64,000 bases of DNA from a bacterium (GCA_031441465.1 JANOEP010000016.1:129301-193300), one strand, 5' to 3'; positions 2,167 to 51,855 are shown, counted from the stretch's first letter. The notes: generated by a model from the letters alone, not told the origin. A program made the numbers and translations.

Positions 2167-2670
2167 ATGACGACCCCTACCGAGTTCCGCACCGAGACCC
2201 GCCCGGCCGACGTCGCGGCCGTCCGCGACTTGGCCGCGGCCACCGCCTACTTCTCCCCGTCGGAGGTGGCGATCGCCGCCGAGCTGGTCGAGGAGCGCCT
2301 ACAGAAGGGGCCGGCCAGCGGCTACGAGTTCCTCTACGCCGACGGCGCCGACCGTCTCGAGGGCTACGCCTGCTACGGCCTGATCCCCTGCACACTATCC
2401 AGCTACGACCTCTACTGGATCGCCGTGCAACCCGACACCCAGGGCAGCGGTCTGGGCCGCCGCATCCTGGAGGACTGCGAGCACCGCATCCGCGCCTTCG
2501 GCGGCACGGCCGTCTACGCCGAGACCAGCGGGAAGCCCCAGTACGTCAGCACCCGGAAGTTCTACGAGCGGTGCGGGTACGACACGGGCGCGGTCTTCGC
2601 AGACTTCTACGGGCCCGGGGACGACAAATACGTCTTCGTCAAGAAACTGGGCGTGGTATCCCCGTCGTGA
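2167..2670 (+). CDS. GNAT family N-acetyltransferase
   Basis: LYWIAVQPDTQGSGLGRRIL acetyl-CoA motif A and RKFYERCGY. Alternative GTG start at 2158 overlaps the upstream stop. Confidence 0.88.
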   Translation: MTTPTEFRTETRPADVAAVRDLAAATAYFSPSEVAIAAELVEERLQKGPASGYEFLYADGADRLEGYACYGLIPCTLSSYDLYWIAVQPDTQGSGLGRRILEDCEHRIRAFGGTAVYAETSGKPQYVSTRKFYERCGYDTGAVFADFYGPGDDKYVFVKKLGVVSPS

Positions 2671-2785
2671 CAGGGGACGCGCGCCGGGCACCTCCTGTGC
2701 CCGGCGCGCTTGACCTCCAGGCCCCTTCGCCATCCTGGCTCCGGGGCCTTCCGGACACCCCTGTCACGACGGGGATGACACGCCC
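2649..2785 (+). repeat. Structured two-hairpin repeat element, copy A
   Basis: Outer IR 2649-2676 / 2758-2785 (28 bp, 2 mismatches) encloses hairpins with CTCCT and ATCCT loops. The left arm contains the last GNAT codons and its TGA. Confidence 0.85.
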
Positions 2786-2888
2786 GAGACAATAGACGCC
2801 CACGCAGCCGCTTGATACACCTGAACGTCCCCAACTGAAGTATCATGATGCGGGTGGTGGGTTGATTGCACCCTTGGAAGGACGCACG

Positions 2889-36266: not shown

Positions 36267-36273
36267 GGCCCCC

Positions 36274-36837
36274 ATGTCCGACCTCTACGAACGCGGCCGC
36301 GTGCTGGCCCTGCTGCACGAGTTCACCCTGACCGAGCCCCTGCGCCGCCACGCCTACGCCGTGGAGGCGGCCATGCGCGCGGCCGCCGTGCGCACCGGCG
36401 GCGATCCCGAGTACTGGGGCGCGGTCGGCCTGCTGCACGACTTCGACTACGAGCGCTTCCCCGAGCCGCCGGACCACCCGCTGCAGGGCGCCGCGATCCT
36501 GCGCGGCCTCGGCTACCCGGAACCCTTCGTGCGCGCGATCCTCTCGCACGCCTCCTACACGGGCGTGCCGCGCGAGGACGACTGCGCGCGCTGGCTCTTC
36601 GCCGTGGACGAGCTGTGCGGTTTCTGCATGGCCTGCGCGATGGTGCAGCCGGACCGCAAGATCGCCGCCGTGCAGGTCGCGTCGGTGCTGAAGAAGCTGA
36701 AGAAGAAGGATTTCGCGGCCAAGGTGAACCGCGAGGAGATCGCCGAGGGCGCGGCGGACCTGGGGCTGGAGCCGGCCGAGACGGCCGCGCACGTGCTCGG
36801 GGCGCTCGCGGGGATCGCCGACGAACTCGGGCTCTAG
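36274..36837 (+). CDS. HD-domain (HDIG) phosphohydrolase
   Basis: RRHAYAVEA, GLLHDFDYE, AVDELCG and KKKDFAAKVNRE motifs. Confidence 0.88.
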   Translation: MSDLYERGRVLALLHEFTLTEPLRRHAYAVEAAMRAAAVRTGGDPEYWGAVGLLHDFDYERFPEPPDHPLQGAAILRGLGYPEPFVRAILSHASYTGVPREDDCARWLFAVDELCGFCMACAMVQPDRKIAAVQVASVLKKLKKKDFAAKVNREEIAEGAADLGLEPAETAAHVLGALAGIADELGL

Positions 36838-36860
36838 GGCCGCGGGAAGGGAGCACGCGC

Positions 36861-37400
36861 ATGAAGTCGCTGGACCTGGGCTGCGGCCCGCGCGGCAAGC
36901 TGGCGGGATCCGTGGGCCTCGACCTGCGGCCGGCCCCGCACGTGGACGTCGTCCACGACCTGAACGACTACCCGCTGCCCTTCGCCGACGGCGAGTTCGA
37001 CCACATCGAGATGTCGCACGTGATCGAGCACGTGACCCGCCCCCTGGACCTCATGGCCGAGGTCCACCGCATCGCCCGCGACGGGGCCACGGTGCGCATC
37101 ATCACGCCGCACTACAGCTCGCAGCTCTCCTACGGCGACCTCGAGCACTTCCACCACCTGGGCTACATCACCTTCCTGACGCTGCAGGGCACCGGCCTGT
37201 TCACCATCGCCCGCCACAAGCTCTGGTTCACCGACCTCACCCGCTGGTGCGGCCTCGCCTGGCTCGCCAACCGCTTCCCGCGGCGCTGGGAGAAGTACCA
37301 CGCCTTCACGATGCCGGCGCTCTACGTGGAAGTCGTCCTGCGCGTGCAGAAGCCCGGCGGGCGGGCTAGTGCCGATCTCGTCCGGGATTACATGTACTGA
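36861..37400 (+). CDS. Class I SAM-dependent methyltransferase (type 11)
   Basis: LDLGCG, HDLNDYPLPF and SHVIEHV motifs. Confidence 0.85.
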   Translation: MKSLDLGCGPRGKLAGSVGLDLRPAPHVDVVHDLNDYPLPFADGEFDHIEMSHVIEHVTRPLDLMAEVHRIARDGATVRIITPHYSSQLSYGDLEHFHHLGYITFLTLQGTGLFTIARHKLWFTDLTRWCGLAWLANRFPRRWEKYHAFTMPALYVEVVLRVQKPGGRASADLVRDYMY

Positions 37401-37404
37401 ACGC

Positions 37405-37559
37405 CCGGACATGGATCGATGACATGGGCCGTGTCCTGCGGACGCGCGCCGGTCACCTCCTGTGACCGGCGCGCTCGACTTCCGGGTCCCTGCGCCCTCA
37501 TGGCGCAGGGACCCTCCAAACGCCGCAGGACACGGCCCATGTCGTCGATCCATGTCCGG
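37405..37559 (+). repeat. Structured two-hairpin repeat element, copy B
   Basis: 37-bp outer IR (37405-37441 / 37523-37559, one T-G pair) around hairpins with CTCCT and CTCAT loops; begins 4 bp after the methyltransferase stop. Confidence 0.85.
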
Positions 37560-37651
37560 CATCCGGCCCGGGCGCCAGTTCATTCAATCCCGGTCGAGAT
37601 GCGGCACGGCGCCTGCGCTTGCAGCGCTCATGTCCACCCAGTTGTCGTGCG

Positions 37652-37784
37652 CAAAATGAGGGGCCTGTTGCCGGGAGCGTCTGGAAGGCCGGAGCGCCAG
37701 GACGGCGCGTAGGCCTGAAAGCCGAGCGAGCCGGACACAGGATGTGTCCGGCTCGCGTCTCCCGGCAACAGGCCCCTTATTTTG
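37652..37784 (-). repeat. Structured two-hairpin repeat element, copy C
   Basis: 26-bp outer IR (37652-37677 / 37759-37784, 1 mismatch); minus-strand core with ATCCT and GTCCT loops; one arm contains the TAA of the epimerase gene. Confidence 0.8.
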
Positions 37785-38901
37785 ATCGTGCGTGCCAGGC
37801 GGCCAGCACCTCGGCTTCGCGTTCGGCCTGCAGCCCGCTGCGCAGCGCATCGGTGCGGTCCTGCGGCAGCGTCTTCCACCAGTCGAGCGTGTCGCGCACG
37901 GTCTCGGACAGCGGGCGCAGGACCATGCCGTCGGACAGGGCGCGGTCGACGCGGATGGTGCCGACGCCGGCCTCCTCGTAGGTCGGGATCCAGCAGGGCA
38001 GGTCGCTCCAGGCCTGCACCTGCTTCTCGGCCAGGAAGTCGCGGCCCACCCAGGTGAAGGTGGCGTCGGAGCCGGAGACGGAGCGGCTGGTCTCGAGCAA
38101 CTCGCCCATGGTCAGCTCGCCGGGGGGCGACACGGCGTTGTGCAGGCCGACGAGACGTTTCTCCAGGCCCAGAATCAGGAAGTCCGCCAGGTCGCGCACG
38201 TCGATGATCTGCACGGCCTCGGCGGGTGCTTCCGGAGCGAGGACCTCGCCGCCGCGGGCCACCCGCACGGGCCAGTAGGTGAAGCGGTCGCTGCCGTCCA
38301 ACGGTCCCACGATCAGGCCGGGGCGGACGTTCCAGACGCGGCCGGGCATGGCTTCGGCGGCTGCCTGCTCGCAGAGGGCCTTCAGCGGGCCGTAGGTCTC
38401 GGCCGTGATCTCCTCGACCGCCGGGTCGGCCAGGGTGCCGACGGCGGACTTCTCGTTCAACCCCACCTGGTTGAAGTCGGCGTAGACCGAGATCGTCGAG
38501 ATGAAGACGTAGTGCTGCACGTGGTCGCGCAGCAGTTCGGCGGACATCTTCACGATGCGCGGGACGTAGCCGCTGGTGTCGATGACGACGTCCCAGTCGC
38601 GGCCGTGCAGGGCGTCGAGCTTGCCGTCGCGGTCGCCTTCGAGCTTCTCCAGATCGGGGAAGAGCTGAGGGTTCGACTTGCCGCGGTTGAAGAGCGTCAC
38701 CTCGTGGCCGCGCGCCAGCGCGGCCTTGACGGTGTGGGGCCCCAGGAAGCGCGTGCCGCCCAGCATCAGGATGCGCAGACGGCGGTCGCTGCGCATTTTC
38801 GTGAAGGAGGCGTTCGCCGGCAGCGACGCCAGCGTTCCGGCTGCCACGAGCGCGCCGGCCGCCAGGGTGGTCCTCAGGAAATCGCGTCGGTCCATGCTCA
38901 T
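37777..38901 (-). CDS. Tat-exported NAD-dependent epimerase/dehydratase (atypical SDR)
   Basis: MDRRDFL twin-arginine signal; GGTRFLG, YGPLK and RPGLIVGP motifs. Confidence 0.88.
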   Translation of the reverse strand: MSMDRRDFLRTTLAAGALVAAGTLASLPANASFTKMRSDRRLRILMLGGTRFLGPHTVKAALARGHEVTLFNRGKSNPQLFPDLEKLEGDRDGKLDALHGRDWDVVIDTSGYVPRIVKMSAELLRDHVQHYVFISTISVYADFNQVGLNEKSAVGTLADPAVEEITAETYGPLKALCEQAAAEAMPGRVWNVRPGLIVGPLDGSDRFTYWPVRVARGGEVLAPEAPAEAVQIIDVRDLADFLILGLEKRLVGLHNAVSPPGELTMGELLETSRSVSGSDATFTWVGRDFLAEKQVQAWSDLPCWIPTYEEAGVGTIRVDRALSDGMVLRPLSETVRDTLDWWKTLPQDRTDALRSGLQAEREAEVLAAWHARSK

Positions 38902-40193
38902 GGTGAAGTCTCCTGTCGTTTCAAGGCCAGCCGCCGCTGTGCGGCGCCCAGGGCCAGGCCCAGGGCGCCCCAGACGACGGCGACCGGCACGGTCGAAAGA
39001 GCGAGACCGGCCAGGCCCAAGCCCGCCCGTCCCAGGACAGTGTACAGCGAAGCGCCCAGGGCGTCGCCGCCCCGGTAGACGAAGGTGTCGAGGAAGCTCT
39101 TGGACTTGAATCTCTGCTCCCGCGTCACCACGGTGAACAGCGTCTCGCGCGCCGGGTGCATCAGCGCGTAGTTGGACGCGCGGCGCAGGATTTGGAAGAC
39201 CGCCAGCACGGTCAGGGTCGGCACGGCGCCCAGGACGGCGAAGCCGGCGGCGGTCAGCGCCGGGACGATCAGCAGCGTGCCGCCGACGCCCAGCCGCGGG
39301 ATCAGACGCCCGGCCACGCCCAGCTGCAGCAGCAGGGTCAGCCCGTTCACCGCTGCGTCGATGCGGGCGAAGATCGCGGCGCGCGCCTCGCGGTCGACTG
39401 CGGCGGCCTCGACGATGTTCGCCTGGGCGAAGTAGAGGATCGTCGAGGACACGGTATAGAGCACCAGGTAGAGGGCGACGCCCAGCAGGTAGGGGGAGCG
39501 GGCGGTGGCGACGATCCCGCTCAGCGCGCCGGCGCGTCGCGGCGCGTCGCAGATCTCGCCTTCGGGCGTCTCGCCGTCCCCGCGCGCCGGCAGTCGCATC
39601 GGCAGCGCGCGCAGGCAGCGCACGGCCAATTCCAGCATCGCCGCCGAAATCAGCAGCAGGTCGGCGCGGCCCACGCTTCCGACCAGCAGGGCCGTCAGGC
39701 CGGCGCCGGCCAGCCCGCCGGCGCTGCCGCCCACGGCGATGAATCCGAACAGCCGCTTGCTGCGCTCCAGGCTCCAGCCGTCGGCCATCACCGCCCAGAA
39801 CAGCGACACCACCCACATGTTGAACACGCTGACCCAGACGTAGAAGACGCGGCCCAGGGCCAGGTCCGAACCGGCGGGCGGCCAGCGCAGCAGCGCCCAG
39901 AACACGAGCAGGCAGGCGATGAAGAAACGGTAGGCGGCGGTCACGAAGACGCGCCGAGGGAAGCGGTCGACCAGCATCCCGAACAGGGGCGCCGCCAGCA
40001 GCATGATGCCCAGGTTGACGAGGTAGAGCCGGGGCAGGCCGTCCACGCCGCCGGCGATGCCCATCTCCTCGCGCAACGGCCGCAGGATGTAGTAGCCGCA
40101 CAGCACGCAGAAGAAGAAGGCGGCCGACAACAGGACGGCGGCCGACTCCTCCCGGCGCACGGGCGCGAGCCTGGTAAGCCAACGGGTGATCAT
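38898..40193 (-). CDS. NTP/NDP exchange transporter-like (TLC/Npt) MFS protein
   Basis: YYILRPLRE, FYVWVSVFN, KRLFGFI, PARETLF and DTFVYRGGD motifs. Confidence 0.85.
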   Translation of the reverse strand: MITRWLTRLAPVRREESAAVLLSAAFFFCVLCGYYILRPLREEMGIAGGVDGLPRLYLVNLGIMLLAAPLFGMLVDRFPRRVFVTAAYRFFIACLLVFWALLRWPPAGSDLALGRVFYVWVSVFNMWVVSLFWAVMADGWSLERSKRLFGFIAVGGSAGGLAGAGLTALLVGSVGRADLLLISAAMLELAVRCLRALPMRLPARGDGETPEGEICDAPRRAGALSGIVATARSPYLLGVALYLVLYTVSSTILYFAQANIVEAAAVDREARAAIFARIDAAVNGLTLLLQLGVAGRLIPRLGVGGTLLIVPALTAAGFAVLGAVPTLTVLAVFQILRRASNYALMHPARETLFTVVTREQRFKSKSFLDTFVYRGGDALGASLYTVLGRAGLGLAGLALSTVPVAVVWGALGLALGAAQRRLALKRQETSP

Positions 40194-40269
40194 GGCACGA
40201 CCTTAACAGGGACCCGACGGGGACGACAGCGGGGAAGTACGGAGGCGGGCGGGAGAAGTTTGTCCTGGA

Positions 40270-40400
40270 GCAGCACATCCTGCCGTGACAGGGGCGTCCT
40301 GCAGGCCCCGCAGCCAGGATGGCGGAGGGGCCGGAAGGTCGAGCGCTCCGGGCGCACGAGGCGCCCGGAGCGCGCCCCCTGTCACGGCAGGATGTGCTGC
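40270..40400 (-). repeat. Structured two-hairpin repeat element, copy D
   Basis: Perfect 25-bp outer IR (40270-40294 / 40376-40400); the right arm encodes QHILP* of the upstream minus-strand gene; loops CTCGT and ATCCT. Confidence 0.85.
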
Positions 40401-41272
40401 CACCGTTCGGCGATGCGGCGCTCGTCCAGACCACGCCAGAAGGCCAGGACGCCGTCGAGCATGTCGTGCCCGCCCTGCAGGAACTTCTCCTGGTCGAACC
40501 CTGCGGTGAAGAAGGCTTCCACCAGCTCGTCCATGACGTGGCCGGCGTGCTGGTCCTCGATGCGGTCGTGCCAGGTGAAGAAGGCCAGCGGCAGGTCCGG
40601 CTGCTCGCTCCGTTTGAAGGCGTCGAGGCCGGCGATCAGTTCCTTCCAGAAGCCGGCGGCGGCCCAGTTCTCCACCGCGAAGCTGGCGCCCTCGGCGATG
40701 TTCGCGTCGGCGCTGCCGTAGATCTCGGCCAGGCGGTCGCAGAAGAACAGGGTCGAGGGCGTGCCGTGCCGCCGCTTGCCCATGTCGTTGAAGCCCAGGC
40801 CGAGCTTCTCGCCGATCTTCAGCAGCCACTCGAAGTGGGCGGCCCGGAAGCGGAACTGGCCTCCATCGACGGAGCCCTCGATCGAGACCAGCTCGGGGTC
40901 GCCCTGCCGGTCGGCGTCGTCGCCGCCGGGACGGCCGCCGGCGCTGTTGAAGATGACGCCGATCTCGTTGGCGAGGATCTCCTTCGAGGCGCGCATCCCT
41001 TCCAGCGAGGAGGCGTTGATCGTCTTGAGCAACTGGGCCACCAGGAAGAGGTTCGAGAAGACGGAGAACTGGACGATCATGTGCGTGACATCGGCGCGCC
41101 CGGCTTCGCCGCTCCCGAACCAGCGCGTGTAGGCGTTGTCGGTGATGACCGGGTGCTGCATCAGGCGGCGGTTGCAGGTCGCCACGAAAGCCTCGAAACG
41201 GTCGGCGTCCGCGCGGGACACCGCGCCGGCCGCGACACGGCTGCGGAATTCCTGGGAAACGGTGAGCTGCAT
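40382..41272 (-). CDS. Heme-oxygenase-like diiron (HDO; TenA/PqqC/CADD superfamily) protein
   Basis: HP motif, ILANEIG, AHFEW, ENWA and WHDRIEDQHAGH candidate metal ligands; AGGAGG RBS. Confidence 0.65.
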   Translation of the reverse strand: MQLTVSQEFRSRVAAGAVSRADADRFEAFVATCNRRLMQHPVITDNAYTRWFGSGEAGRADVTHMIVQFSVFSNLFLVAQLLKTINASSLEGMRASKEILANEIGVIFNSAGGRPGGDDADRQGDPELVSIEGSVDGGQFRFRAAHFEWLLKIGEKLGLGFNDMGKRRHGTPSTLFFCDRLAEIYGSADANIAEGASFAVENWAAAGFWKELIAGLDAFKRSEQPDLPLAFFTWHDRIEDQHAGHVMDELVEAFFTAGFDQEKFLQGGHDMLDGVLAFWRGLDERRIAERWQHILP

Positions 41273-41426
41273 CGGCGACCTCCTGACTCTGGATGGATCA
41301 CGGACAGAGTCGACAGGATAACTCCGACATTGTGCGGCGCCACGTCGATGCGCGTGCTGGTCAAGGTGGGGGGCGTGTGGTAGCATGGGTTGAAGGGACA
41401 CCGGTCCGGCTGCGAGGCTTGGCGGT

Positions 41427-41453
41427 GTAACTTGATATAAGAAAGTAAGTTAC
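41427..41453. promoter_or_regulatory. AT-rich palindromic site between divergent genes
   Basis: GTAACTT-N13-AAGTTAC. Confidence 0.5.
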
Positions 41454-41492
41454 TTGTTCGATAGATCTGGCCGACAGGGTGGGGAGCGCCGC

Positions 41493-42287
41493 ATGGGATT
41501 CCGGTACGGGGAGGTCCTGAACCTCTGGCGACGGTGGACGGGGCTGGGGAAACCGAGGCCCGAGACCCGTGCGGCCCGTGAACCCGTCAGCCCCGCGATC
41601 GTCCCCCGGATCCTCGAGCAGGCCCTGCGCCAGGTCGAACTGCTGCGCGCCTCCGGACGCGATCTGCACGGCGCCACGGTGCTGGAGGTCGGCACCGGCG
41701 CAGCGCCGATCGTGCCCCTGATCTACAGCCTCGCCGGCGGCGACGACATCATCCTGGTGGACCATGTGCGCACCCTCGACCAGGATCTCCTGGTCCGCAC
41801 GGCCTTCAACCTGAGGGGCCACTCGCGCGAGATCTCCGCACGGCTGGACCTGTCCGAGCGCGATATCCTGCAGCGGCTGCGGGTGGTCGACGACGAGACC
41901 GTCTTCGCGGTGCTCCGGCAGTTCCACATGCAGTACCTCGCACCCTACGATCTGCTCGAGGCGACGCTGCCCGACCACGGCATCGACATCGTCACCGGCA
42001 GCGACCTGATGCAACAGTTCACCCCCCGCTACCTGCGCGCGATGATGCCGGTGATCGGCCGGCTCCTGCGGCCCGAGGGGCTCTTCTGCCACTGCGTCGA
42101 CCGTGCCGACCGGCTCGCCGCGGTGGCCCTGCTGCGCGAGTCGGGCTTCGGCATCGTGTCCGAGGAGACCGAACCCATCCTGCGCGTGGTCACGGACGAC
42201 GAGCCGGCGGCCCTACGCACCACACCGCCCGACTCCTTCCTGCTGGCCTCCTGGCAAGGCGGCGCCCTGCGGGCGGACGAGCGCTGA
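41493..42287 (+). CDS. SAM-dependent methyltransferase-like protein (divergent)
   Basis: VLEVGTG motif I, DIVTGSDLMQ and RLLRPEG. Confidence 0.65.
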   Translation: MGFRYGEVLNLWRRWTGLGKPRPETRAAREPVSPAIVPRILEQALRQVELLRASGRDLHGATVLEVGTGAAPIVPLIYSLAGGDDIILVDHVRTLDQDLLVRTAFNLRGHSREISARLDLSERDILQRLRVVDDETVFAVLRQFHMQYLAPYDLLEATLPDHGIDIVTGSDLMQQFTPRYLRAMMPVIGRLLRPEGLFCHCVDRADRLAAVALLRESGFGIVSEETEPILRVVTDDEPAALRTTPPDSFLLASWQGGALRADER

Positions 42288-42311
42288 CCGTCCGAACACG
42301 GAGGCCCCGCC

Positions 42312-44075
42312 GTGCAGAACCTTGCCCTCGACATCAGGGAACGGGCCCGTCGTCACGGCGCGCGCATCGCGATGCGTCACAAGTCCGACGGCCGCTGGCA
42401 GGAAATCACCTACGCGGAACTCGACACGACGGTCGAACGCCTGGCGGCCGGGCTGGTGCGCCTCGGCGTGGCCCGGGGCGACCGCGTGGCGCTGTTCGCG
42501 CCCAACATGCCGGCCTGGAGCCTGTGCGACCTCGCCGTGCTGTCGATCGGGGCGGTGACGGTTCCGGTCTACGCCACGAGCACCGCCGAGCAGCTCGCGG
42601 CGATCGTCGCTGATTCCGGCGCGCTGGTGTTGATCGCCGGCACGCCGCAAGAAGCGGTGACCGCGGCGGTGGCCGCCGCCGGCCGGACCCTGATCCTGTG
42701 CGAAGGGGAAGCGCCCGCGGAGGCGCCGGGCGCGATTTCCTTGGCGGCGCTGACCGCAGCCGCGATCGAGCCCGAGATCGCCGCCGAACTGCGCCGGCGC
42801 GAGGCTGCGGCGAGCGACGACGACCTCGCCACGATCATCTACACCTCGGGCACGACCGGCGACCCCAAGGGCGTCCTGCTGACGCACGCCAACTTCCGCG
42901 GCCAGTTCGCGTCCCTCGGCCGCCGTTTCGCGTTCGGCCCTGATGACCACTCGCTCTGTTTCCTGCCGCTGAGTCACGTGTACGAGCGGGCCTGGTCCTA
43001 CTACGTCTACCTCACGGGCGCCCGCAACTCCTTCGTCGCCGATCCCAAGCAGGTCGTGGCCCACCTCGCGGAGGTGCGGCCGACGGCGATGGTGTCGGCG
43101 CCGCGCCTCTACGAAAAGGTGCACGCCGCCGTGCACGAGAAGGTCTCCCGCGCGCCGCGCCTGCGCCGCGCCCTGTTCCACTGGGCCGTGCGTATCGGCG
43201 GCGAGTACCAGTCCGCGCGTCGCGGACCAGGCGGCGCCGGTCCGGGTCTGCGCTGGCGCCACGCCCTGGCCGACCGCCTCGTGCTGCGCCGGATCCGCGA
43301 CCTGATGGGCGGCCCCAAGAGCGTCCTGTCCGCGGGCGGCGCGCCGCTGTCCCCGGACATCGAGAACTTCTTCTTGGCGGCGGGCTTGCTGATCTGCCAA
43401 GGCTACGGGCTGACCGAGACGGCGCCCATGATCGCCTGCAACGCGCCCGGCGCCTGCCGGTTCGGCACCGTGGGCAAGCCCATCGACGGCGTCGAGGTGC
43501 GCATCTCCGAAGAAGGGGAGATCCTCGTGCGCGGCCCGAACGTCACCGCCGGCTACCACAACCGGCCGGCGGACACCGCCGCCGCCCTGCGCGACGGCTG
43601 GCTCCACACCGGCGACGTCGGGCACCTCGACGCGGACGGGTACCTGGTGGTCACCGACCGCCTCAAGGACCTGATCGTCACTTCGACCGGCAAGAACATC
43701 GCGCCGCAGCGCATCGAAACGCTCGTGGGCGGCGATCACTTCATCGACCAGCTGGCCGTCGTCGGCGACCGTCGCCAGTATGTCAGCGCCCTGGTCGTGC
43801 CGGCCTTCGAGGCGCTCAAGGCGTGGGCGGAGGAGAAGCGCATCGCCTTCCGCGACCACGAAGACCTGATCGCCAAGCCCGAAGTCGTGCAACTCATGGA
43901 GGAGCGGATCCGCTCGCGCTCCCTGCAGCTCGCGCCCTTCGAGACGATCCGGAAGTTCACGCTGCTGGCCAAGCAGTTCACGCAGCAGGCCGGTGAAATC
44001 ACCCCGACGCTGAAGGTCCGCCGCAAGGTGATCGCCGAGCGCTACCGCCACCTGATCGACCGCATGTACAATTGA
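42312..44075 (+). CDS. Long-chain fatty-acid--CoA ligase (AMP-binding, FadD15-like)
   Basis: YTSGTTGDPKG, QGYGLTET, WLHTGDVG, DRLKDLIVTSTGKNIAP and TPTLKVRR motifs. Confidence 0.93.
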   Translation: MQNLALDIRERARRHGARIAMRHKSDGRWQEITYAELDTTVERLAAGLVRLGVARGDRVALFAPNMPAWSLCDLAVLSIGAVTVPVYATSTAEQLAAIVADSGALVLIAGTPQEAVTAAVAAAGRTLILCEGEAPAEAPGAISLAALTAAAIEPEIAAELRRREAAASDDDLATIIYTSGTTGDPKGVLLTHANFRGQFASLGRRFAFGPDDHSLCFLPLSHVYERAWSYYVYLTGARNSFVADPKQVVAHLAEVRPTAMVSAPRLYEKVHAAVHEKVSRAPRLRRALFHWAVRIGGEYQSARRGPGGAGPGLRWRHALADRLVLRRIRDLMGGPKSVLSAGGAPLSPDIENFFLAAGLLICQGYGLTETAPMIACNAPGACRFGTVGKPIDGVEVRISEEGEILVRGPNVTAGYHNRPADTAAALRDGWLHTGDVGHLDADGYLVVTDRLKDLIVTSTGKNIAPQRIETLVGGDHFIDQLAVVGDRRQYVSALVVPAFEALKAWAEEKRIAFRDHEDLIAKPEVVQLMEERIRSRSLQLAPFETIRKFTLLAKQFTQQAGEITPTLKVRRKVIAERYRHLIDRMYN

Positions 44076-44085
44076 GGGCCGGGCA

Positions 44086-44125
44086 CGCAAAGGCGGCGTG
44101 GGAAGGGACCCACGCCGCCTTTGCG
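44086..44125. terminator. Probable bidirectional terminator
   Basis: 17-bp perfect IR cgcaaaggcggcgtggg / cccacgccgcctttgcg between convergent genes. Confidence 0.75.
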
Positions 44126-44139
44126 CACCCAGCCCGTTC

Positions 44140-44817
44140 TTAGCGGGTGTCGGTCTTCGTGAAGATGTAGGGGCCTTTGATCGCGCCCCAGACCTGCTGG
44201 CCGTCCTTGTCGTAGCCGCGGTCCCAGGACTTCAGCCACATCGCGGTGACGGTCACTTCGGACGTCGCGTAGGACGCGCCGTCGAGTTCGCTGGCGCAGT
44301 TTTTGCCGTCGGTCGCGCCCTTGAAGGTGAAGTCGTCGACCTTGTCCAGGGTGACCCCGCAGCCGGTCTTCGGGGTGAGCTGCTCGGGCGTGAGGGCGGC
44401 GAAGCGGGCCGGGTCGTTCCAGGCCCCGGCGAATTCGGCCTCGCCGGGCAGGGTGTAGACGTCGCTGACGTAGCTGTCGGCGTCCTTGCGCGTGAGGCGG
44501 TAGACGCGCTGGCGGTAGGGAGCCGCGGCGCCCGCGACGGTCTGCTCGACGTAGAGCCAGACGCCGTCGCCGCGCGAGGGCCAGATCTGGGACATCTCCA
44601 GGCGGATGTCGCGGAATTCGGCATCCTCGGCCGCCTGCGGGGCGCTGCTGAAGGAGCCGGTCATCAGCTTGGACATCGCCAGCAACTGCGTGTCCGGAGG
44701 CGTGGGCGGCGTGTAGTCGTAGAACTTCTCGCCCAGCAAGCCGCCGCAGCCCGTCAGGACCGCCGCCAGGCCGGCCAGGATCGTCAGGAGGCACAGGGTC
44801 CGCACGGCCGTCGTCAT
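44140..44817 (-). CDS. CpcT/CpeT chromophore-lyase-like lipoprotein
   Basis: Lipobox LTGC; MTGSFSS..QA, WLYVEQ..PYRQRVY, GC, SWDRGYD..QVWG..GPY motifs. Confidence 0.82.
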   Translation of the reverse strand: MTTAVRTLCLLTILAGLAAVLTGCGGLLGEKFYDYTPPTPPDTQLLAMSKLMTGSFSSAPQAAEDAEFRDIRLEMSQIWPSRGDGVWLYVEQTVAGAAAPYRQRVYRLTRKDADSYVSDVYTLPGEAEFAGAWNDPARFAALTPEQLTPKTGCGVTLDKVDDFTFKGATDGKNCASELDGASYATSEVTVTAMWLKSWDRGYDKDGQQVWGAIKGPYIFTKTDTR

Positions 44818-44908
44818 CGTTCTCTCCTCTTTGGGAAACCGCCGGTTCGCACCGCCTTGAATTTGCGCTGCCGGCGCCCGTCTGTCCACCCCCGGATGCG
44901 TCCGGGCC

Positions 44909-44930
44909 GATTTCATCAAGATTTCACAGA
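44909..44930 (+). promoter_or_regulatory. Putative Pho box (OmpR/PhoB-type direct repeat)
   Basis: GATTTCATCAA-GATTTCACAGA, 11-bp period, about 77 bp upstream of the phoB-like gene. Confidence 0.6.
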
Positions 44931-45006
44931 CAGGGAGGGCTCCGGTGCCTATCATGGGTGCGGCGTCGTTCCGCTGCGCAGCGGCCGGGCGCCGGGAGGT
45001 GACGGC

Positions 45007-45693
45007 ATGGCCAAGGACACGATCCTGATCGTCGAGGACGAGGAGGACATCCAGGAACTCGTCCGCTACACCCTGGAGCGCGAAGGCCACACCGTGGTGG
45101 CCGCCGACACGGGCGAGAAGGGGCTGGCCGCCGTCCGCGGGGCGCGCCCGGCGCTGATCCTGCTGGACCTGATGCTGCCCGGCCTCGACGGCAAGGAAAT
45201 CTGCCGGCGGCTCAAGCAGGACGAGGACACCCGCTCCATCCCGGTGATCATGCTGACGGCCAGGGGCGAGGAGGCCGACATCGTGGCCGGCCTGGAACTC
45301 GGCGCGGACGACTACATCACCAAACCCTTCAGCACCAAGGTGCTCGCGGCGCGGGTCGGCGCGGTGCTGAGGCGGACGGCGCGCGGCGCGCCGGCGCCGC
45401 AGGACGTGATCGAGATCGACGACCTGAAGATCCATCCCGGCCGGCACGAGGTGACCGTGGCCGAGCGCAAGGTCGACCTGTCCTCCACGGAGTTCGGCAT
45501 CCTGCAGTTCCTGGCCCGCCGACCCGGTTGGGTCTTCACGCGGCGCCAGATCGTCCGCGGGGTCCACGGCGAGGACCACCCGGTCCTGGACCGCTCCATC
45601 GACGTGCAGATCGCCTCGTTGCGCCGCAAGCTCGGTGACCGCGGCGACCTGGTGGAGACCGTCCGCGGCGTCGGTTACCGGTTTGCCGAGTAG
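45007..45693 (+). CDS. phoB: PhoB/OmpR family response regulator
   Basis: IVEDE, LLDLMLPG, GADDYITKPF, RSIDVQIASLRRKL and ETVRGVGY; upstream of a PhoR-like kinase. Confidence 0.85.
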   Translation: MAKDTILIVEDEEDIQELVRYTLEREGHTVVAADTGEKGLAAVRGARPALILLDLMLPGLDGKEICRRLKQDEDTRSIPVIMLTARGEEADIVAGLELGADDYITKPFSTKVLAARVGAVLRRTARGAPAPQDVIEIDDLKIHPGRHEVTVAERKVDLSSTEFGILQFLARRPGWVFTRRQIVRGVHGEDHPVLDRSIDVQIASLRRKLGDRGDLVETVRGVGYRFAE

Positions 45694-45721
45694 AGCGGGC
45701 GCCGCGGGTCGGACCGGGGCC

Positions 45722-47527
45722 ATGGGCCGGCGCCGCCTGTTCTGGCAGCTCTTCCCCACCTTCGTGGCGATCACCGCCCTGTCGTTGCTCGCCGTCTCCG
45801 CCCTGACCGCGCACGTCGTGCGCACCTCCTTCCGGGACCGCGCCACGGCCGACATGCGGCGCGACGCCGACGTGATCGCCTCCAGCTTCGATTCCTGGTT
45901 CCCCGCCGCCGCGCCGCCGGCCGCGCGCGACACGGCGTGCCGGGATCTGGCCCGGAGCCTGGGCGTTCGCCTCACGGTCGTCGCGCCCGACGGGACGGTG
46001 CTCGGCGATTCCGACGGGGACTCCGCCGGGATGGAGAACCACGCCGGCCGCGAGGAAGTGCGCGCAGGGCTCGCCGGCAACCCGGCCACGGCGATTCACG
46101 AGAGCCGCACCCTAGGGCACAAGCTCATCTACTTCGCGTTGCCCGTGGTCCGCGGCGGCTCGACGGTGGCCGTGCTGCGCCTGGCGGTTTCCGCGGCCGT
46201 CGTCGAAGCCGAACTGGCCGCCATCCGGACCCGGATCGCCCTGAGCGCCCTCGCGGTGGCGCTGCTGGCGGCGGCGGTCAGCCTGTGGATCAGCCGCCGC
46301 CTGAGCCGGCCCCTCGAGCAGCTGCGGCGCAGCGCGGAACAGTTCGCGGCCGGCGACCTGGACCAGCGCTCCCCGCCGGCGGCGACCCGCGAGATCGCCC
46401 AGCTGGCCGAGGCCATGAACACGATGGCGGCGCAGCTCGACGACCGCATCCGGACCGCGGAGCGCCAGCGCGACGAACTCGAAGCGGTGTTCGCCGGCAT
46501 GGTCGAGGGAGTCCTGCTGATCGACGCCCGCCAGAGCATCGCCAGCCTGAACCAGGCCGGCGCCGACCTGCTGGGCGTGCCGTGGGCGGGCGCCGCGGGC
46601 CGCACCGTACCCGAGGCGCTCCGACACGCCGCGCTGCAGCGCTTCATCGAACGCACGACGGGCGAGGCGGCGGCCGCCGCTTGCGAAGCCGACCTGGAAC
46701 TGCCGGGCGCCGACGGCGAGACGGTCCACCTGCGGGTTCACGGGGTGCGGCTGGAGCGTCCCGGGGAACCGCCGCGCACCTTGATCGTCATGCACGACGT
46801 GACCCGCATGCGCAAGCTGGAGAACGTGCGCCAGGAGTTCGTGGCCAACGTGTCCCACGAACTCAAGACGCCCGTCACCTCGATCAAGGGCTTCGTCGAG
46901 ACCCTGCGCGACGGCGCGCTCGAAAACCCCGCCGACGCGCGGCGCTTCCTGGACATCGTGGCCCGGCAGGCCGACCGGCTGCAGGCGATCATCGAGGACC
47001 TGCTCTGCCTGTCGCGCCTCGAGCAGGGCACCGGCCAGACGAGTCGTGAGATGGGTGTCTACCCGGTGGCCGGCGTCCTGGCCGCCGCCGTGCAGACCTG
47101 CCAGCCCCACGCCGACACGCGCGGCACGCTGCTGTCGGTGGCGTGCGACCCGGCGCTGCGGGCCCACATCGATCCGCCGCTGCTGGAGCAGGCTCTGGTC
47201 AACCTCATCGAGAACGCCATCAAGTACAACGAGGACGGCACGCGGGTCACGGTGTCGGCGCGCCAGGAGGGGGAAGCGGTGCGCATCGCCGTGGCCGACG
47301 ACGGCCGGGGCATCGAGGCCCGCCACCTGCCGCGCATCTTCGAGCGGTTCTACCGCGTCGACCGGGCCCGCAGCCGGCAGGAGGGCGGCACCGGCCTGGG
47401 CCTGGCCATCGTCAAGCACATCGCGCTGTTCCACGGCGGGGAGGTGGGTGTGCGCTCGTCGCCCGGCGGCGGCAGCGAGTTCACGCTCACGCTGCCGCTG
47501 CGGCCGACCGCGACCCGCCCGGTCTGA
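45722..47527 (+). CDS. phoR: PhoR-like sensor histidine kinase (HAMP-PAS-HisKA-HATPase)
   Basis: MENH..R.E periplasmic motif, FVANVSHELKTP, NAIKY and FERFYRVDRARSR..GGTGLGL. Confidence 0.85.
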   Translation: MGRRRLFWQLFPTFVAITALSLLAVSALTAHVVRTSFRDRATADMRRDADVIASSFDSWFPAAAPPAARDTACRDLARSLGVRLTVVAPDGTVLGDSDGDSAGMENHAGREEVRAGLAGNPATAIHESRTLGHKLIYFALPVVRGGSTVAVLRLAVSAAVVEAELAAIRTRIALSALAVALLAAAVSLWISRRLSRPLEQLRRSAEQFAAGDLDQRSPPAATREIAQLAEAMNTMAAQLDDRIRTAERQRDELEAVFAGMVEGVLLIDARQSIASLNQAGADLLGVPWAGAAGRTVPEALRHAALQRFIERTTGEAAAAACEADLELPGADGETVHLRVHGVRLERPGEPPRTLIVMHDVTRMRKLENVRQEFVANVSHELKTPVTSIKGFVETLRDGALENPADARRFLDIVARQADRLQAIIEDLLCLSRLEQGTGQTSREMGVYPVAGVLAAAVQTCQPHADTRGTLLSVACDPALRAHIDPPLLEQALVNLIENAIKYNEDGTRVTVSARQEGEAVRIAVADDGRGIEARHLPRIFERFYRVDRARSRQEGGTGLGLAIVKHIALFHGGEVGVRSSPGGGSEFTLTLPLRPTATRPV

Positions 47528-47530
47528 GCC

Positions 47531-48655
47531 TCACTTCGTCGTCGTGGGTTCCCGGCCGCCGGCGATCCCGAAAGGGAGGCCGAGCGAGGTGAGATTGACG
47601 CCCAGCGCGTAGCTGTCGTTGCGGTTGAGGTTGAAGGCGAGGCCGGGCCGCAGGCCGCAGACCTCGAACAGGCCCGGGTAGAGGTTCACGCGCAGCTTGT
47701 AATCCTTGGACCGCGCCCAGAGCACCGAGGCCAGCAGCGAGTTCCGGCGGTCGTAGAACAGGCCGGCGGTCGCGGCCAGTTCGGCGCCCTTGTGGTACTG
47801 CGTGATGTCGATCAGCACGTCGGCCTTCATCCCGGCGCCGAAGGAGAGGCTGCGGCCGTCGTCCCAGGTCCGCGACAGGCCGAGTTCGCCGTGCGTGCCG
47901 TAGTGGTAGAAGAGGCTCCAGCGCTCCCAGAACGGCAGATCCAGCTTCATGGCGAAGTTCTGCCCGTTGTTGACGAGGGTCTCGCGCCAGGGATCGACCA
48001 TCGGTTGGTAAGACCAGTCGCTCATGTGCAGGGTGTCGCCGAAGAAGCGGCAGACGCCTTCGTGGCTGAACAGGATGATGCTAGCCGGGTCGAACAGCAG
48101 GACGTCGGCGACGGGATCGGTGGTCCAGCCGTCGTAGCCGTCGTTCTCGACCACCTCGTTCAGCAGGTGGTAGGACATCATCGTCATGCCGCTCCAGAGC
48201 GAAGCGTGCTGGTAGCCGTGCGCCCGGTACCATTCGGCGGTCATGCGGTAGCTCATGCCGCCGCCGAGCAGGTGCTGCGTGTAATTCGGCCAGTAGTGGG
48301 CCTTGCCGCTGTTGAAGCTGATCGGGATCACCTCGCGCTGCAGAAAATCCCACCAGCCCTCCGCCTGGATGGCGCCGCCGGGATCGGTCAGGTTCCGCCA
48401 GACGTTCTTCCAGCCCTGACGGTAGTCGACATCCAGGGGATGGTTGTCCCGGCTGGACAGCTGCATGATCCCCCAGCCGCCGTTGACGACCAGGCGCAGG
48501 GGATGGATCAGCGAATCGGTGCCGTAGTCCAGTCCGTGATAGAAATAGGCGTGTGTCTCTTCTTCGGCAGGCGTTTCCTGGCCGGCGCGGACGGAGCCGG
48601 CCGGCGAAACGATGAGCAGCAGCGTGAGCGTGATGGCCGGCAGGGCTCTGTTCAT
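47531..48655 (-). CDS. Secreted or outer-membrane hypothetical protein
   Basis: Signal peptide, aromatic-rich sequence, amphipathic beta-strands in the C-terminal half. Confidence 0.65.
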   Translation of the reverse strand: MNRALPAITLTLLLIVSPAGSVRAGQETPAEEETHAYFYHGLDYGTDSLIHPLRLVVNGGWGIMQLSSRDNHPLDVDYRQGWKNVWRNLTDPGGAIQAEGWWDFLQREVIPISFNSGKAHYWPNYTQHLLGGGMSYRMTAEWYRAHGYQHASLWSGMTMMSYHLLNEVVENDGYDGWTTDPVADVLLFDPASIILFSHEGVCRFFGDTLHMSDWSYQPMVDPWRETLVNNGQNFAMKLDLPFWERWSLFYHYGTHGELGLSRTWDDGRSLSFGAGMKADVLIDITQYHKGAELAATAGLFYDRRNSLLASVLWARSKDYKLRVNLYPGLFEVCGLRPGLAFNLNRNDSYALGVNLTSLGLPFGIAGGREPTTTK

Positions 48656-48874
48656 GACCGTCCGTGTCGCGGAAGTGGCGATGACCCGGCCGACGGGCGA
48701 TGACCGCAGGTCTCGGCGCGGACCGAATATCCGCCCCCTCGCCGTCGTCCGCAAGTCCCCATCTCCGCAGGAGATCCACCCGGGAACAACCTATTGACAG
48801 CAGGGTGATTTCGCACCACTTTTGATCTCATAGATTCGAAACCGTTTCCAGAGTTGCCGTCGGGAGTGCCCGTC

Positions 48875-51688
48875 ATGATGTACCCGCCCCGTCCAGCCCG
48901 GTACCTGCGACTGCTCGCGGCGGCGGCGTGGCTCCTGGCATCGGCCGCCGGCGCCGCCGCGGCCCAGTCGGTCGACGATTGCCTGATCTGCCACGAAGAC
49001 CAGACGCTCACCAAGAACCGCGCCGGCAGCGTCGTTTCCCTCTACGTCGCCAAGACGGTCTTCGCAGGCTCGGTGCACGGCCTCGGCGGGCTGGCCTGCG
49101 TCGATTGCCACGCGGACCTGGCCGGTGTCGAGGGCGAGCACGAGCCGCGGCTGGCGTCGGTGGATTGCGCCACCTGCCACGACGACGTCGCGACGATCTA
49201 TGCGGGCAGCCTGCACGGACGGCGGGTGGCCGCCGGAGACCCGAACGCGCCGAGCTGCACCGACTGCCACGGCGCCCACGACATCCTGCCGCCCGCGGAG
49301 CCGACCTCCCGGGTGAACCGCTTCAACATCCCGATGATGTGCGGCGGCTGCCACAAGGAAGGGACGCCGGTCGCGCGGATGTACGACATCCCGCAGGACA
49401 GCATCCTGACCCACTACTCGCAGAGCATCCACGGGGAAGGCCTCTTCAAGCGCGGGTTGACCATCTCCGCGGTCTGCATCGACTGCCACACCGCCCACGA
49501 CGTGCGGCCCCACACCGACCCCAAATCGTCGATCTCGCGCGATCGCGTGGCGGCCACCTGCCAGAAGTGCCACGGGCGCATCGAGCAGGTCCACCAGAAG
49601 GTGATCGAGGGCGCGCTGTGGGAGAAGGAACCCCACAAGGTCCCCGCCTGCGTCGAATGCCACCAGCCCCACCGGGTGCGCCGCGTCTCCTACCAGGAGG
49701 GGGTCTCGGACAGCGAGTGCCTGGCCTGCCACGGCCGGCAGGACCTGTCGGTGGTGCGCGGCGGCGAGACGGTTTCGCTCTTCGTCGACGCCGCCGAGGC
49801 CACCGGTTCGGCGCATCGCAAGGTGTCCTGCGCGCAGTGCCACACCGGCACCACGCCCAACCACCCCGAGCGGGCCTGCGCCACGGTCACCGGTCGGGTC
49901 GACTGCTCCATCTGCCACGCCGAGCAGGTGAACCTCTATGCCGAGAGCACCCACGGCACGCTGCTGGCGCGCGGCGACCCCGACGCGCCGCAGTGCCGCA
50001 CCTGCCACGGCACGCACGGTGTCCAGCTGCACCTCGACCCCCGGTCGCCCACCTACGTCAGCAACGTCGCCGCGCTATGCGCGGAGTGCCACGGGGCGGG
50101 CGGCAAGGCCGACGTCCGCTACACGGGCCGCGACAAGGGGATGGTGGAGAACTACGCCGAGAGCGTGCACGGCCGGGCCATCCAGCAGAGCGGCCTGGTT
50201 GTCTCGGCGACCTGCACCGACTGCCACACGGCCCACCACGTCCTGCCGCAGACCGACGTGCGTTCGACCATCAATCGCAGCCGGATCGTGGACACCTGCG
50301 CGCACTGCCACCAGGGCATCTTCGAGACCTTCCGCAACAGCATCCACTTCACGGGGAAGGAGCGCGACGGGGCCCAGCTACCGATGTGCAACGACTGCCA
50401 CTCCTCGCACGAGATCGCCGAGACCGACGCCAAGGGTTTCATGCACGAGATCGTCACCACCTGCGGCCACTGCCACCCGGACGTCACGGAGTCCTACTTC
50501 GAGACCTTCCACGGCAAGGTCGTCAAGCTGGGCTACACCGAGACGGCCAAGTGCCAGGATTGCCACGGCGCCCACGACATCCTGCCGCCGGACAACCCGG
50601 CTTCGTCGCTCTCGCGCGACAACATCGTGGCCACCTGCGCCCAGTGCCATCCCGAGTCGCACCGCCGTTTCGCGGGCTACCTGACCCACGCCACGCATCA
50701 CGACAAGGACAAGTACCCGTTCATCCACTACACGTGGCTGCTCATGACGGCGCTGCTGGTGGGCACCTTCGGCTTCTTCGGCATCCACACGCTGCTGTGG
50801 CTGCCGCGCTCGATCATGGCCTTGAAGCACTCCCGCCAGCTGCGCCGCGACGAGCGGCCGGGCGAGAAGCAGTTCCGCCGCTTCCAGCGCCTGCCGCGCT
50901 ACCTGCACATCCTGGTGATCGTCAGCTTCCTGGGACTCGCGGTCACCGGCATGACCCTGAAGTTCTCCTACTTCCCGTGGGCGCAATGGATCTCCCACGC
51001 CCTGGGCGGCTTCCAGGGCACCGGCGTGATCCACCGCCTCTGCGCGCTGATCACGTTCTTCTACTTCGTTCGCCACATCATCGACATCTGCTGGCGCAAG
51101 AAGCTGTCCGGCCTGGGCTGGAAGGGGTACCTGACCGGCCCCAACTCGATGCTGCCCAAGAAGCGGGACGGCGTGGAGTTCGTGCAGACCATCCGCTGGT
51201 TCGTCGGCCTGGGACCGCGCCCCGAGTACGGCCGCTGGACCTACTGGGAGAAGTTCGACTACTTCGCCGTGTTCTGGGGCGTGGGCATGATCGGCCTGTC
51301 GGGCCTCATCCTGTGGTTCCCCGAGGCGTTCACCCGCGTGTTGCCGGGCTGGTTCGTCAACGTGGCGACCATCATCCACTCCGACGAGGCGCTGCTGGCG
51401 ACCGGCTTCATCTTCACGGTGCACTTCTTCAACACGCACTTCCGGCCCGACCGCTTCCCGATGGACCCGGTCATCTTCACCGGCCGGATGTCGCTGGCGG
51501 AGTTCCAGGCCGACCGGCCGCGGGAGTACCGCGAACTGGTCGAGTCCGGCGAGCTGGAGAAGCACCTGGTCGACCCCCTGACGCCGAACATGGTCCGGGC
51601 GCTCAAGGTGTTCGGCTTCACGGCGCTGGCGATCGGCTTGAGCCTGATCGTCCTGATCATCTGGGCCGAGATCTTCGGGTACCGGTGA
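48875..51688 (+). CDS. Multiheme cytochrome c (19 CxxCH) fused to a cytochrome b membrane domain (CbcL-like)
   Basis: Signal peptide; 19 CxxCH motifs counted; C-terminal TM domain with LHILVIVSFLGLAVTG, HR, WEKFDYFAVFWG and IHSDEALLA. Confidence 0.9.
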   Translation: MMYPPRPARYLRLLAAAAWLLASAAGAAAAQSVDDCLICHEDQTLTKNRAGSVVSLYVAKTVFAGSVHGLGGLACVDCHADLAGVEGEHEPRLASVDCATCHDDVATIYAGSLHGRRVAAGDPNAPSCTDCHGAHDILPPAEPTSRVNRFNIPMMCGGCHKEGTPVARMYDIPQDSILTHYSQSIHGEGLFKRGLTISAVCIDCHTAHDVRPHTDPKSSISRDRVAATCQKCHGRIEQVHQKVIEGALWEKEPHKVPACVECHQPHRVRRVSYQEGVSDSECLACHGRQDLSVVRGGETVSLFVDAAEATGSAHRKVSCAQCHTGTTPNHPERACATVTGRVDCSICHAEQVNLYAESTHGTLLARGDPDAPQCRTCHGTHGVQLHLDPRSPTYVSNVAALCAECHGAGGKADVRYTGRDKGMVENYAESVHGRAIQQSGLVVSATCTDCHTAHHVLPQTDVRSTINRSRIVDTCAHCHQGIFETFRNSIHFTGKERDGAQLPMCNDCHSSHEIAETDAKGFMHEIVTTCGHCHPDVTESYFETFHGKVVKLGYTETAKCQDCHGAHDILPPDNPASSLSRDNIVATCAQCHPESHRRFAGYLTHATHHDKDKYPFIHYTWLLMTALLVGTFGFFGIHTLLWLPRSIMALKHSRQLRRDERPGEKQFRRFQRLPRYLHILVIVSFLGLAVTGMTLKFSYFPWAQWISHALGGFQGTGVIHRLCALITFFYFVRHIIDICWRKKLSGLGWKGYLTGPNSMLPKKRDGVEFVQTIRWFVGLGPRPEYGRWTYWEKFDYFAVFWGVGMIGLSGLILWFPEAFTRVLPGWFVNVATIIHSDEALLATGFIFTVHFFNTHFRPDRFPMDPVIFTGRMSLAEFQADRPREYRELVESGELEKHLVDPLTPNMVRALKVFGFTALAIGLSLIVLIIWAEIFGYR

Positions 51689-51855
51689 TGTCTCCTTTCT
51701 GAAACGTGTTCCCCTCCCTCGTGACCGGGGGCGCGCTCCGGGCACCTCGTGTGCCCGGAGCGCTTGGCCATCCGGCCCCTCCGCCATCCTGGCTGCGGGG
51801 CCTCCAGGACACCCCGGTCACGAGGGAGGGGAACACGTTTCAGAAAGGCGGCATC
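51687..51855 (+). repeat. Structured two-hairpin repeat element, copy E
   Basis: Outer IR perfect for 37 bp (51694-51730 / 51812-51848), 44 bp with 2 mismatches; loops CTCGT and ATCCT; abuts the cytochrome stop. Confidence 0.85.

Follow-up and report, generated by a model that had tools for sequence, protein, structure and literature searches.

A 64,000-nucleotide stretch of bacterial DNA (GCA_031441465.1 JANOEP010000016.1:129301-193300; hereafter the window) carries five copies, c1–c5, of a short element that folds into two hairpins on a common outer stem and lies in sense orientation at the stop codons of five unrelated genes. The question that this locus raises is what keeps such a structure intact and what places it there. 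A reading made from the DNA alone (the sequence-only reading) had proposed selection on a single-stranded structure, either an RNA motif of 3' untranslated regions (3'-UTRs) or a non-autonomous mobile repeat moved in trans. We find that the element is mobile DNA, which comes and goes between sister species, and that it represents a hitherto undescribed family of small hairpins of non-coding DNA whose Y-shaped tip is conserved. Its pairing looks to be kept at the DNA level, one arm serving as template for the other, and not by selection on RNA.

All five copies are genuine and lie where, and on the strand on which, they had been proposed (Table 1). The 33 full copies from the genome containing the window (G000; 3.49 Mb, 69.6% G+C, 74 contigs) served to build a covariance model, R1, which matches the five at 105–118 bits; the core that they have in common, put earlier at ~80 nt, is 83 nt long and closed by a long outer stem, P1. 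In the alignment of the 33 genome copies (A1) the apex of hairpin 1 is C-N-T-C-(C/G)-T-G and that of hairpin 2 is (A/C)TCCTGG, in agreement with the loops described by the sequence-only reading; both hairpins have a C-N-T-C-N-T-G apex, and the tip is asymmetric and Y-shaped. That reading needs correcting in one point: the linker TYGRC pairs with the tail GACRC (columns 50–54 with 93–97) in a further stem, P3, in which C:G is replaced by U:A in 15 of the 33 copies. Because linker and tail pair together, the consensus fold consists of P1, hairpin 1 and P3 enclosing hairpin 2. The proposed compensating changes in the stems are likewise borne out, as 29 of the 37 pairs of the A1 structure are changed on both sides. 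Moreover, 96.8% of paired cells are complementary versus 77.6% in shuffles, and the covariation score is 0.514 versus 0.143 in shuffles (none of 500 reaching 0.514) and 0.07–0.11 with partners slid. Single copies fold much better than their shuffles: z is −11.5 to −12.6 for c1, c3 and c4, none of 200 shuffles equalling them, and c1 has a fold energy of −110.2 kcal/mol (z −12.6). The innermost P1 bases are common to the copies (GGGG/CCCC; GTGACAGGG in one subfamily), whereas the outer arms are copy-specific yet complementary inside each copy, and every genus has its own semi-conserved arm blocks between short hypervariable blocks, always compensated (e.g. G009, G018). The element exceeds the extent first assigned to it: P1 runs over 16–55 nt in complete G000 copies and, at the c1 locus, reaches ~95 nt in three congeners, and the genome has ~35 copies.

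Comparison of orthologous loci in the six congeners (G001–G006), whose flanks are ~90% identical to those of G000, reveals both filled and empty sites. Copy c4 is absent from five of the six congeners; there the protein of the upstream gene has the end ...WHAAAMRPA*, and a plain GC hairpin comes next. In G000, c4 has displaced the last codons, the stop and this native hairpin, and the protein now ends ...WQHILP* with its TGA in the element arm. In relatives' contigs from two RNA-library runs c4 is likewise missing, and 75 other letters lie between 40260 and 40398. Copy c5 is filled in G001, G003 and G006 and empty at four loci of G002, G004 (two loci) and G005. The empty alleles have a small native hairpin over the stop, and the filled ones carry the element inside that hairpin, with middle arms that differ between G000 and G001/G006 at the same site. 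Copy c2 is present in G001, G004, G005 and G006 and absent in G003. Elsewhere in G000, the copy on contig C49 is specific to this genome, with six empty loci in five genomes, and that on C21 is absent in G006 and G001; conversely, ten G006 copies are missing at the matching G000 site (L045, L048, L049, L050, L056, L057, L059, L062, L065 and L066). Orthologous copies of c2, c3 and C52 are retained in most congeners. Decay takes several forms, namely, loss of hairpin 2 (G003 at c4), loss of the 3' half and a lone piece of outer arm. A rule by which the element would always enter a native hairpin at its tip was considered; it fits c5 but not c4, C49 or C21. By eye, the empty c4 alleles bear some likeness to the arms (CGCAC..CCT.CC, CCTGCCGTGGGACGG), a likeness not subjected to a shuffle test and from which no claim is drawn. 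In G000, the copy at C42:6274-6372 (L029) ends after hairpin 2 and runs into AT-rich CGTAACTATATGG... near a contig end, while C38 has the copy intact; the C42 copy is possibly interrupted by another insertion.

The way in which pairing is preserved points to DNA rather than RNA. Among 96 copies from seven genomes, 3421 of 3535 paired cells are Watson–Crick, 32 are G:T, 38 A:C and 44 other; wobble is rare (G:U 0.9% of cells) and no commoner than A:C, which is unusual for a structure-selected RNA. Length changes affect both arms. At the c1 locus, the gene has an earlier stop (ggcTGA) in G001, G002 and G004, followed by arms of ~95 nt, whereas G000 has lost ~68 nt of the left arm and the matching ~60 nt of the right arm together with the native stop, so that its GNAT gene now ends ...VVSPS* at a TGA of the arm. 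At C52, P1 begins at the stop codon in the orthologues with both arms readable, and stop and far arm read TAG/CTA in G000 and TGA/TCA in G001 and G004 (G002, with TAG and a far arm ending CT, and G006, with TAA and a right arm read only in part, were not judged). At c3, G002 and G003 differ at 4 of 19 arm positions, all compensated, and at C66 the G006 copy lengthens P1 by 9 nt across the gene end. Furthermore, at c2 and C49 the empty alleles already contain the unique bases of the left arm, of which the right arm is an inverted copy. That the left arm is always native was rejected as a general rule: c2 and C49 conform to it, C21 does so in part, and C72 does not clearly do so. Since there is no wobble excess and insertions and deletions are mirrored in both arms, pairing appears to be kept by copying one arm from the other at the DNA level. 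The proposal of selection on RNA structure thus stands in part: sense orientation and stop adjacency speak for it, the lack of wobble excess and the mirrored length changes against it. According to passages of PMC8794818, PMC13100816 and PMC5941160, template switching can create, repair, lengthen and maintain perfect stems in one event. We favour replication template switching because arm changes are mirrored, stems perfect and arms lengthened, and we infer that it is the simplest account of the mirrored arm patterns.

One lineage of the element is linked to an insertion sequence (IS). Its members are composites of ~230–240 bp with arms of ~80 nt and the ends GGTTCTGGC-N6-ATTGTCCCTG. The same ends bound a 1.2-kb element in G000 (C64:34938-36148; L073:439-1649) with a single open reading frame (ORF) of 365 aa, and matching ends are found on copies of the 1.2-kb element in G001, G002, G004 and G006. 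The 365-aa protein is matched 15 times in G000 and up to 36–39 times in some relatives (G023, G021), and 29 of 41 related genomes have it; the window itself is free of transposases, as had been stated. The protein has no Pfam family match, its N-terminal part alone matches NCBIfam NF033558 (IS1 transposase) at 23.6 bits versus a cut-off of 100, and its closest clusters in the ESM Atlas bear the automatic name IS1 family transposase (score 0.99). Given the lack of a Pfam match, the weak NCBIfam match and the automatic cluster names, we call it only IS1-like, on sequence grounds. Target duplications accompany this lineage: 11 bp, perfect against the empty G000 site, at L050, a MITE (miniature transposable element with inverted repeats), and 8–9 bp, imperfect, at L066; IS copies have 9 bp, perfect (L086), and 7–8 bp (L089). 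No duplication is found at the unique-armed insertions C49 and C21. The MITE-like mobility in trans suggested earlier is therefore upheld by presence and absence among congeners and by one lineage with IS terminal repeats and duplications of 9–11 bp. Composites, of which G000 C11:14752-14984 is an example, number 8 among 30 G006 loci plus two stretches of G000; both outer repeats flank only 2 of 34 G000 copies, and a terminal-repeat profile has no matches in 30 loci of five other genera, so this transposase cannot explain the whole family. Mini-hairpins of 57–68 bp, consisting of the two terminal repeats alone, occur at C44:44451-44518 and C64:10964-11020 of G000 (L075, L073 region), one of them directly behind an aaaTAG stop. 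Since such repeat-only hairpins exist, the composite is probably a Y-tipped element nested centrally in a mini-MITE. Other fillings between the same terminal repeats measure 126, 175 and 384 bp (C44, C61, C27). Four IS or mini-MITE ends (L075, L080, L087, L089) adjoin genes ending K-x-L-(Y/F)-(K/R)-stop, which could reflect a preferred target or a paralogous gene family.

The claim that copies share the orientation of the preceding gene holds for the window and beyond. Coding potential was scored with a home-made codon-usage measure trained on long G000 ORFs. A co-oriented coding frame precedes all five window copies, with the stop −22 to +4 nt from the P1 base, and the five upstream genes have different products, i.e. 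they are unrelated, as proposed. In G000, 22 of 34 copies are sense, their stops lying −22 to +17 nt from the P1 base (14 within −3 to +6), versus 4 with only a converging gene end within 30 nt (two of these at contig ends, with an unreadable sense side) and 8 without a nearby gene end. In G006, 13 of 29 are sense, none antisense-only and 16 unassigned, 3 of the 16 being composites whose outer repeat adjoins a TAG stop. These counts overstate independence because some loci are orthologues of each other. Where two copies lie within 300 nt of each other, they are arranged plus-then-minus in 14 of 14 cases and never minus-then-plus among the matches listed (150 of 396 in one list), which gives each convergent gene its own sense copy. 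IS and composite ends often adjoin TAG (TAG, or TA, directly followed by GGTTCTGG), and for this reason stop adjacency may be partly target choice in a 70% G+C genome. Orientation, by contrast, cannot be set by a terminal repeat that is symmetric, so that the sense bias needs selection after insertion or a transcription-linked step. Terminator-like sites in window 33000-52900 number 8 versus 6.5 expected, none of them at a copy. Canonical terminators do exist in the lineage, given a textbook intrinsic terminator at window 33312-33347 (+), with a 15-bp GC stem followed by TCTTTTT, and a second one, GAAGGCGGGGAGGG...CCCTCCCCGCCTTC plus a T run, downstream of the C49 locus in congeners.

Table 1. 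Window copies, their parts and the genes before them (window positions; covariance model R1 scores the five copies at 105–118 bits)
Feature	Position	Strand	Remark
c1, whole element	2649..2785	+	P1 5' arm ~2649-2676, P1 3' arm 2758-2785
c1, R1 match	2664-2770	+	118.1 bits
c1, hairpin 1	2679-2709	+	loop CTCCT
c1, P3/hairpin 2	~2712-2756	+	tip GCCATCCTGGC
GNAT acetyltransferase gene before c1	ORF 1609-2670	+	TGA 2668-2670 inside inner P1 arm GTGACAGGG
c2, whole element	37405..37559	+	subfamily B core, unique arms of 36 nt
c2, R1 match	37429-37535	+	
Methyltransferase gene before c2	TGA 37398-37400	+	c2 starts 4 nt after TGA
c3, whole element	37652..37784	-	head to head with c2
c3, R1 match	37665-37771	-	
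Epimerase-domain gene before c3	TAA 37777-37779	-	P1 includes stop and last codons
c4, whole element	40270..40400	-	subfamily A, arms GCACATCCTGCCGTGACAGGG
c4, R1 match	40282-40388	-	
Gene before c4 (protein without Pfam family)	40382-41401	-	ends ...WQHILP* within arm TGA
c5, whole element	51687..51855	+	arms ~50 nt
c5, R1 match	51718-51824	+	
Multihaem cytochrome/cytochrome b gene before c5	48854-51688	+	TGA 51686-51688 at P1 base

The family extends well beyond the window. G000 has 37 matches to a profile of the 83-nt core (nhmmer, E < 0.001) and 35 to R1, and R1 matches are found in 21 of 41 related genomes: in all six congeners (34–58 matches each), in 17 of 24 genomes of the family and in three of four of a second family, with none in 12 genomes of five other families of the class. 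The exact two-tip pattern occurs in at least 117 stretches, one genome per species being scanned, and 70 of 80 two-tip stretches examined match R1 at E ≤ 0.01, E-values that are flattering because the pattern had pre-selected these loci. Taxonomic labels are those of the depositors; Velthaea and Sericytochromatia were placed by taxonomy look-up. Among the 80 stretches, R1 scores above 100 bits come from metagenome-assembled genomes (MAGs) labelled Latescibacterota, ‘bacterium’, Fibrobacter/Fibrobacteraceae and Gemmatimonas; eight records labelled Eremiobacterota/Vulcanimicrobiota score 44–70 bits and a ninth 30, and seven loci labelled Sericytochromatia score 26–32 bits. In a model-fitted alignment, the copies from MAGs labelled as other phyla have the same architecture plus extra shared bases, GGGGACGC and TCGCCATCCTGGCT, and their arms extend for 15–45 nt with unique sequences. 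An alignment of 16 such copies with MAFFT and RNAalifold recovered no more than hairpin 1 and some of hairpin 2, since misalignment cost it P1 and P3; their full architecture is read from the model-fitted alignment and from direct extension of the arms. Three Eremiobacterota-type MAGs have a copy behind one and the same gene end (..GGAEAL.G*); the arms of these copies differ, and changes in their hairpin-2 stems are compensated. Two-tip stretches without an R1 match (L154, L161 from Desulfovirgula thermocuniculi DSM 16036, L173, L183, L196, L208, L226 and L231) may be chance occurrences, or else remote relatives of the element in lineages that include cultured ones. Rfam 15 has no match in the window at gathering score, and at E ≤ 1 the four copies compared give sub-threshold miRNA-hairpin matches only; no description of the element was found in Rfam or in the full texts searched. 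A search for a split form with distant tips found hairpin tip 1 nine times outside known copies, five of them in one unrelated repeat, and tip 2 was uninformative, with 119 of 147 matches outside copies (it is common in coding DNA); this tip search gave no candidate for a split autonomous form. The unrelated repeat has five copies of at least 90 nt with CGCACCTCCTGTGG, at C14:2818, C55:31583, C56:63, C57:15579 and C69:62 of G000, partly at contig ends.

On balance, we consider it somewhat probable that the family is a MITE- or REP-like (repetitive extragenic palindrome) nested palindrome whose arms are copied at the DNA level, which in one lineage rides on an IS1-like element, and which is kept or tolerated as a sense hairpin at stop codons. 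Replication template switching, namely, fold-back copying between arms, would keep the arms identical, lengthen them and make them anew, and unique-armed copies could be placed by the same process or by a factor that reads the conserved tip. Copies would survive only where harmless or useful, that is, as a sense hairpin starting at the stop codon, where the survivor would stand in for, or extend, the native 3'-end hairpin. Its likely role would be in formation or protection of transcript 3' ends.

Several points weigh against this explanation. Conservation of the tip in three labelled phyla fits host function better than drifting selfish DNA, and so does retention behind the same gene in the three Eremiobacterota-type MAGs. 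A DDE transposase, needing terminal repeats alone, explains neither the conserved tip nor the orientation bias, and it leaves unexplained the 32 of 34 G000 copies without terminal repeats. The direction of arm copying is not uniform, since a congener retains only an outer right-arm piece at C72. No T run follows P1 in the copies read, and for this reason the element is not a canonical intrinsic terminator; furthermore, at C49 a canonical terminator has survived downstream of the element, so that this copy, at least, is dispensable for termination. The gene calls come from the home-made codon-usage score, and orthologous copies are counted separately. Finally, four public RNA runs held 7–10% of the sampled words, all as relatives' contigs 90–95% alike, and because these matches are assembled contigs of relatives, the runs are uninformative on transcript ends, strand and level.

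The alternative that survives best is a host-functional structured 3'-UTR RNA, acting in processing, termination or protein binding, with two UCCU-type loops read by a conserved factor and with mobility as a secondary trait; we regard it as a serious but unlikely explanation. It would account naturally for the strong sense bias and stop adjacency, for convergent genes that each have their own copy (all 14 pairs among the matches listed), for hairpin tips that are invariant across MAGs labelled as three phyla, and for the retention both of c2, c3 and C52 orthologues in most congeners and of a copy at one gene end in Eremiobacterota-type MAGs despite wholly different arms. It sits poorly with the near-equality of G:U and A:C cells, with the many species-specific copies and normal-looking empty alleles, with the unrelatedness of upstream genes and the lack of an Rfam family match, and with a lineage that is plainly a transposon passenger.

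Somewhat less likely still, in our estimate, is that the Y-tip is the cis-acting site of an undescribed, transcription-linked mode of spreading, in which a hairpin cassette is copied to the 3' end of a gene and its stem is taken from host sequence. Copying would proceed by template switching or self-primed fold-back synthesis just past the stop codon, and a made-to-measure 3'-end hairpin would thereby be written behind genes in at least three bacterial phyla. The same evidence could equally mean that the tip is a conserved 3'-end RNA signal read by some factor.

We think it improbable that the orientation bias reflects negative selection through CsrA, whereby antisense loops would titrate CsrA or bring a gene under its control and sense insertions with UCCU loops would persist. 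In antisense the loops read CAGGAGG and CAGGAUGG, which would resemble CsrA binding sites. CsrA (PF02599) is found in G000, in 23 of 24 genomes of its family and in all four of the second element-bearing family, and was not detected in f3, f4 and f7, three families equally devoid of the element; yet f5 (three of three genomes) and f6 (two of three) have CsrA and no element, and the link is accordingly weak. Moreover, the conserved tip and the stop adjacency would be left unexplained.

A REP doublet forming a hairpin (REPIN) or an IS200/IS605-type single-stranded DNA element, moved by an HUH (Y1/Y2) transposase recognising both hairpins, is very improbable, despite the common apex motif of the two hairpins and pairing that looks DNA-level. 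The REPIN version of the sequence-only reading, with a REP-associated tyrosine transposase (RAYT), is not supported, as PF01797 is found in none of the seven genomes of the genus, while the same search found it in 6 of 14 known genomes used as a control. The core also consists of two different hairpins in fixed order, not of an inverted pair of one REP. The IS91-type Y2_Tnp is present in 13 of 41 genomes, within the genus in G000 and G002 only, and was not detected in the element-rich G001, G003–G006, G008, G009, G018 and G022; it was rejected as mobiliser, since its distribution does not follow that of the element. In addition, direct target duplications occur, which HUH elements are not known to make. 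Independently evolved terminator hairpins or chance likeness, suggested only by a position at gene 3' ends that native hairpins share, can be practically dismissed, being refuted by covariation far above controls, by fold z near −12 and by R1 matching the 83-nt core at 100–120 bits at dozens of loci behind unrelated genes.

Among known systems, the attC sites of integrons are imperfect palindromes that lie directly after the stop of the preceding gene in fixed orientation and are recognised by fold, not sequence. The element resembles them in being palindromic, directly after a stop codon and of fixed orientation, but attC sites conserve the ends and vary in the centre, whereas here the centre is conserved and the ends vary, and the copies are dispersed, not arrayed. 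IS-derived bacterial MITEs, e.g. Correia elements, RUP and ERIC (review PMC3184786), are similarly short, non-coding and multi-copy, fold into one hairpin through long inverted arms and are present or absent between relatives, and the composite lineage shares terminal repeats with an autonomous IS and has target duplications. Unlike them, most copies of the element lack terminal repeats, the centre and not the ends is conserved, outer arms are copy-unique yet perfectly paired, copies are sense at stop codons and the core occurs in MAGs labelled as other phyla. The terminator-like repeat SPRITE is a near kind in print (same part of PMC3184786); judged by that description, the element differs in lacking a T run and in having a Y-shaped tip with two identical apex motifs and much longer, hypervariable arms. 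REP, bacterial interspersed mosaic elements (BIMEs) and REPIN–RAYT systems (PMC3337134, PMC2817692) are likewise GC-rich palindromic repeats between convergent genes, and PMC3184786 reports effects of REP/BIME on mRNA stability and protein binding. REPIN–RAYT systems are set apart by the genus lacking a RAYT gene, by the two different hairpins in fixed order and by the target duplications. Finally, template-switch (quasipalindrome) mutation, as treated in passages of PMC8794818, matches the perfect stems, the multi-base compensated changes and the homogenising and lengthening of arms; it is a process, not an element, and leaves the conserved tip, spread to new loci and orientation unexplained.

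Small palindromic repeats are usually regarded as lineage-specific junk with conserved ends, and the present family displays the reverse pattern. It offers a natural case of strong covariation arising from DNA-level copying of arms, which calls for caution in RNA-motif discovery, and a tractable system for how template switching builds and lengthens hairpins. If a factor does read the tip, it would represent a new 3'-end signal or a new route of mobilisation. The element also alters genes: in the GNAT gene and in the one before c4 the last codons now derive from the element. The gene before c5 encodes a 944-aa protein in which multihaem cytochrome c domains (MtrC/MtrF-like) are fused to a cytochrome b561-type membrane domain.

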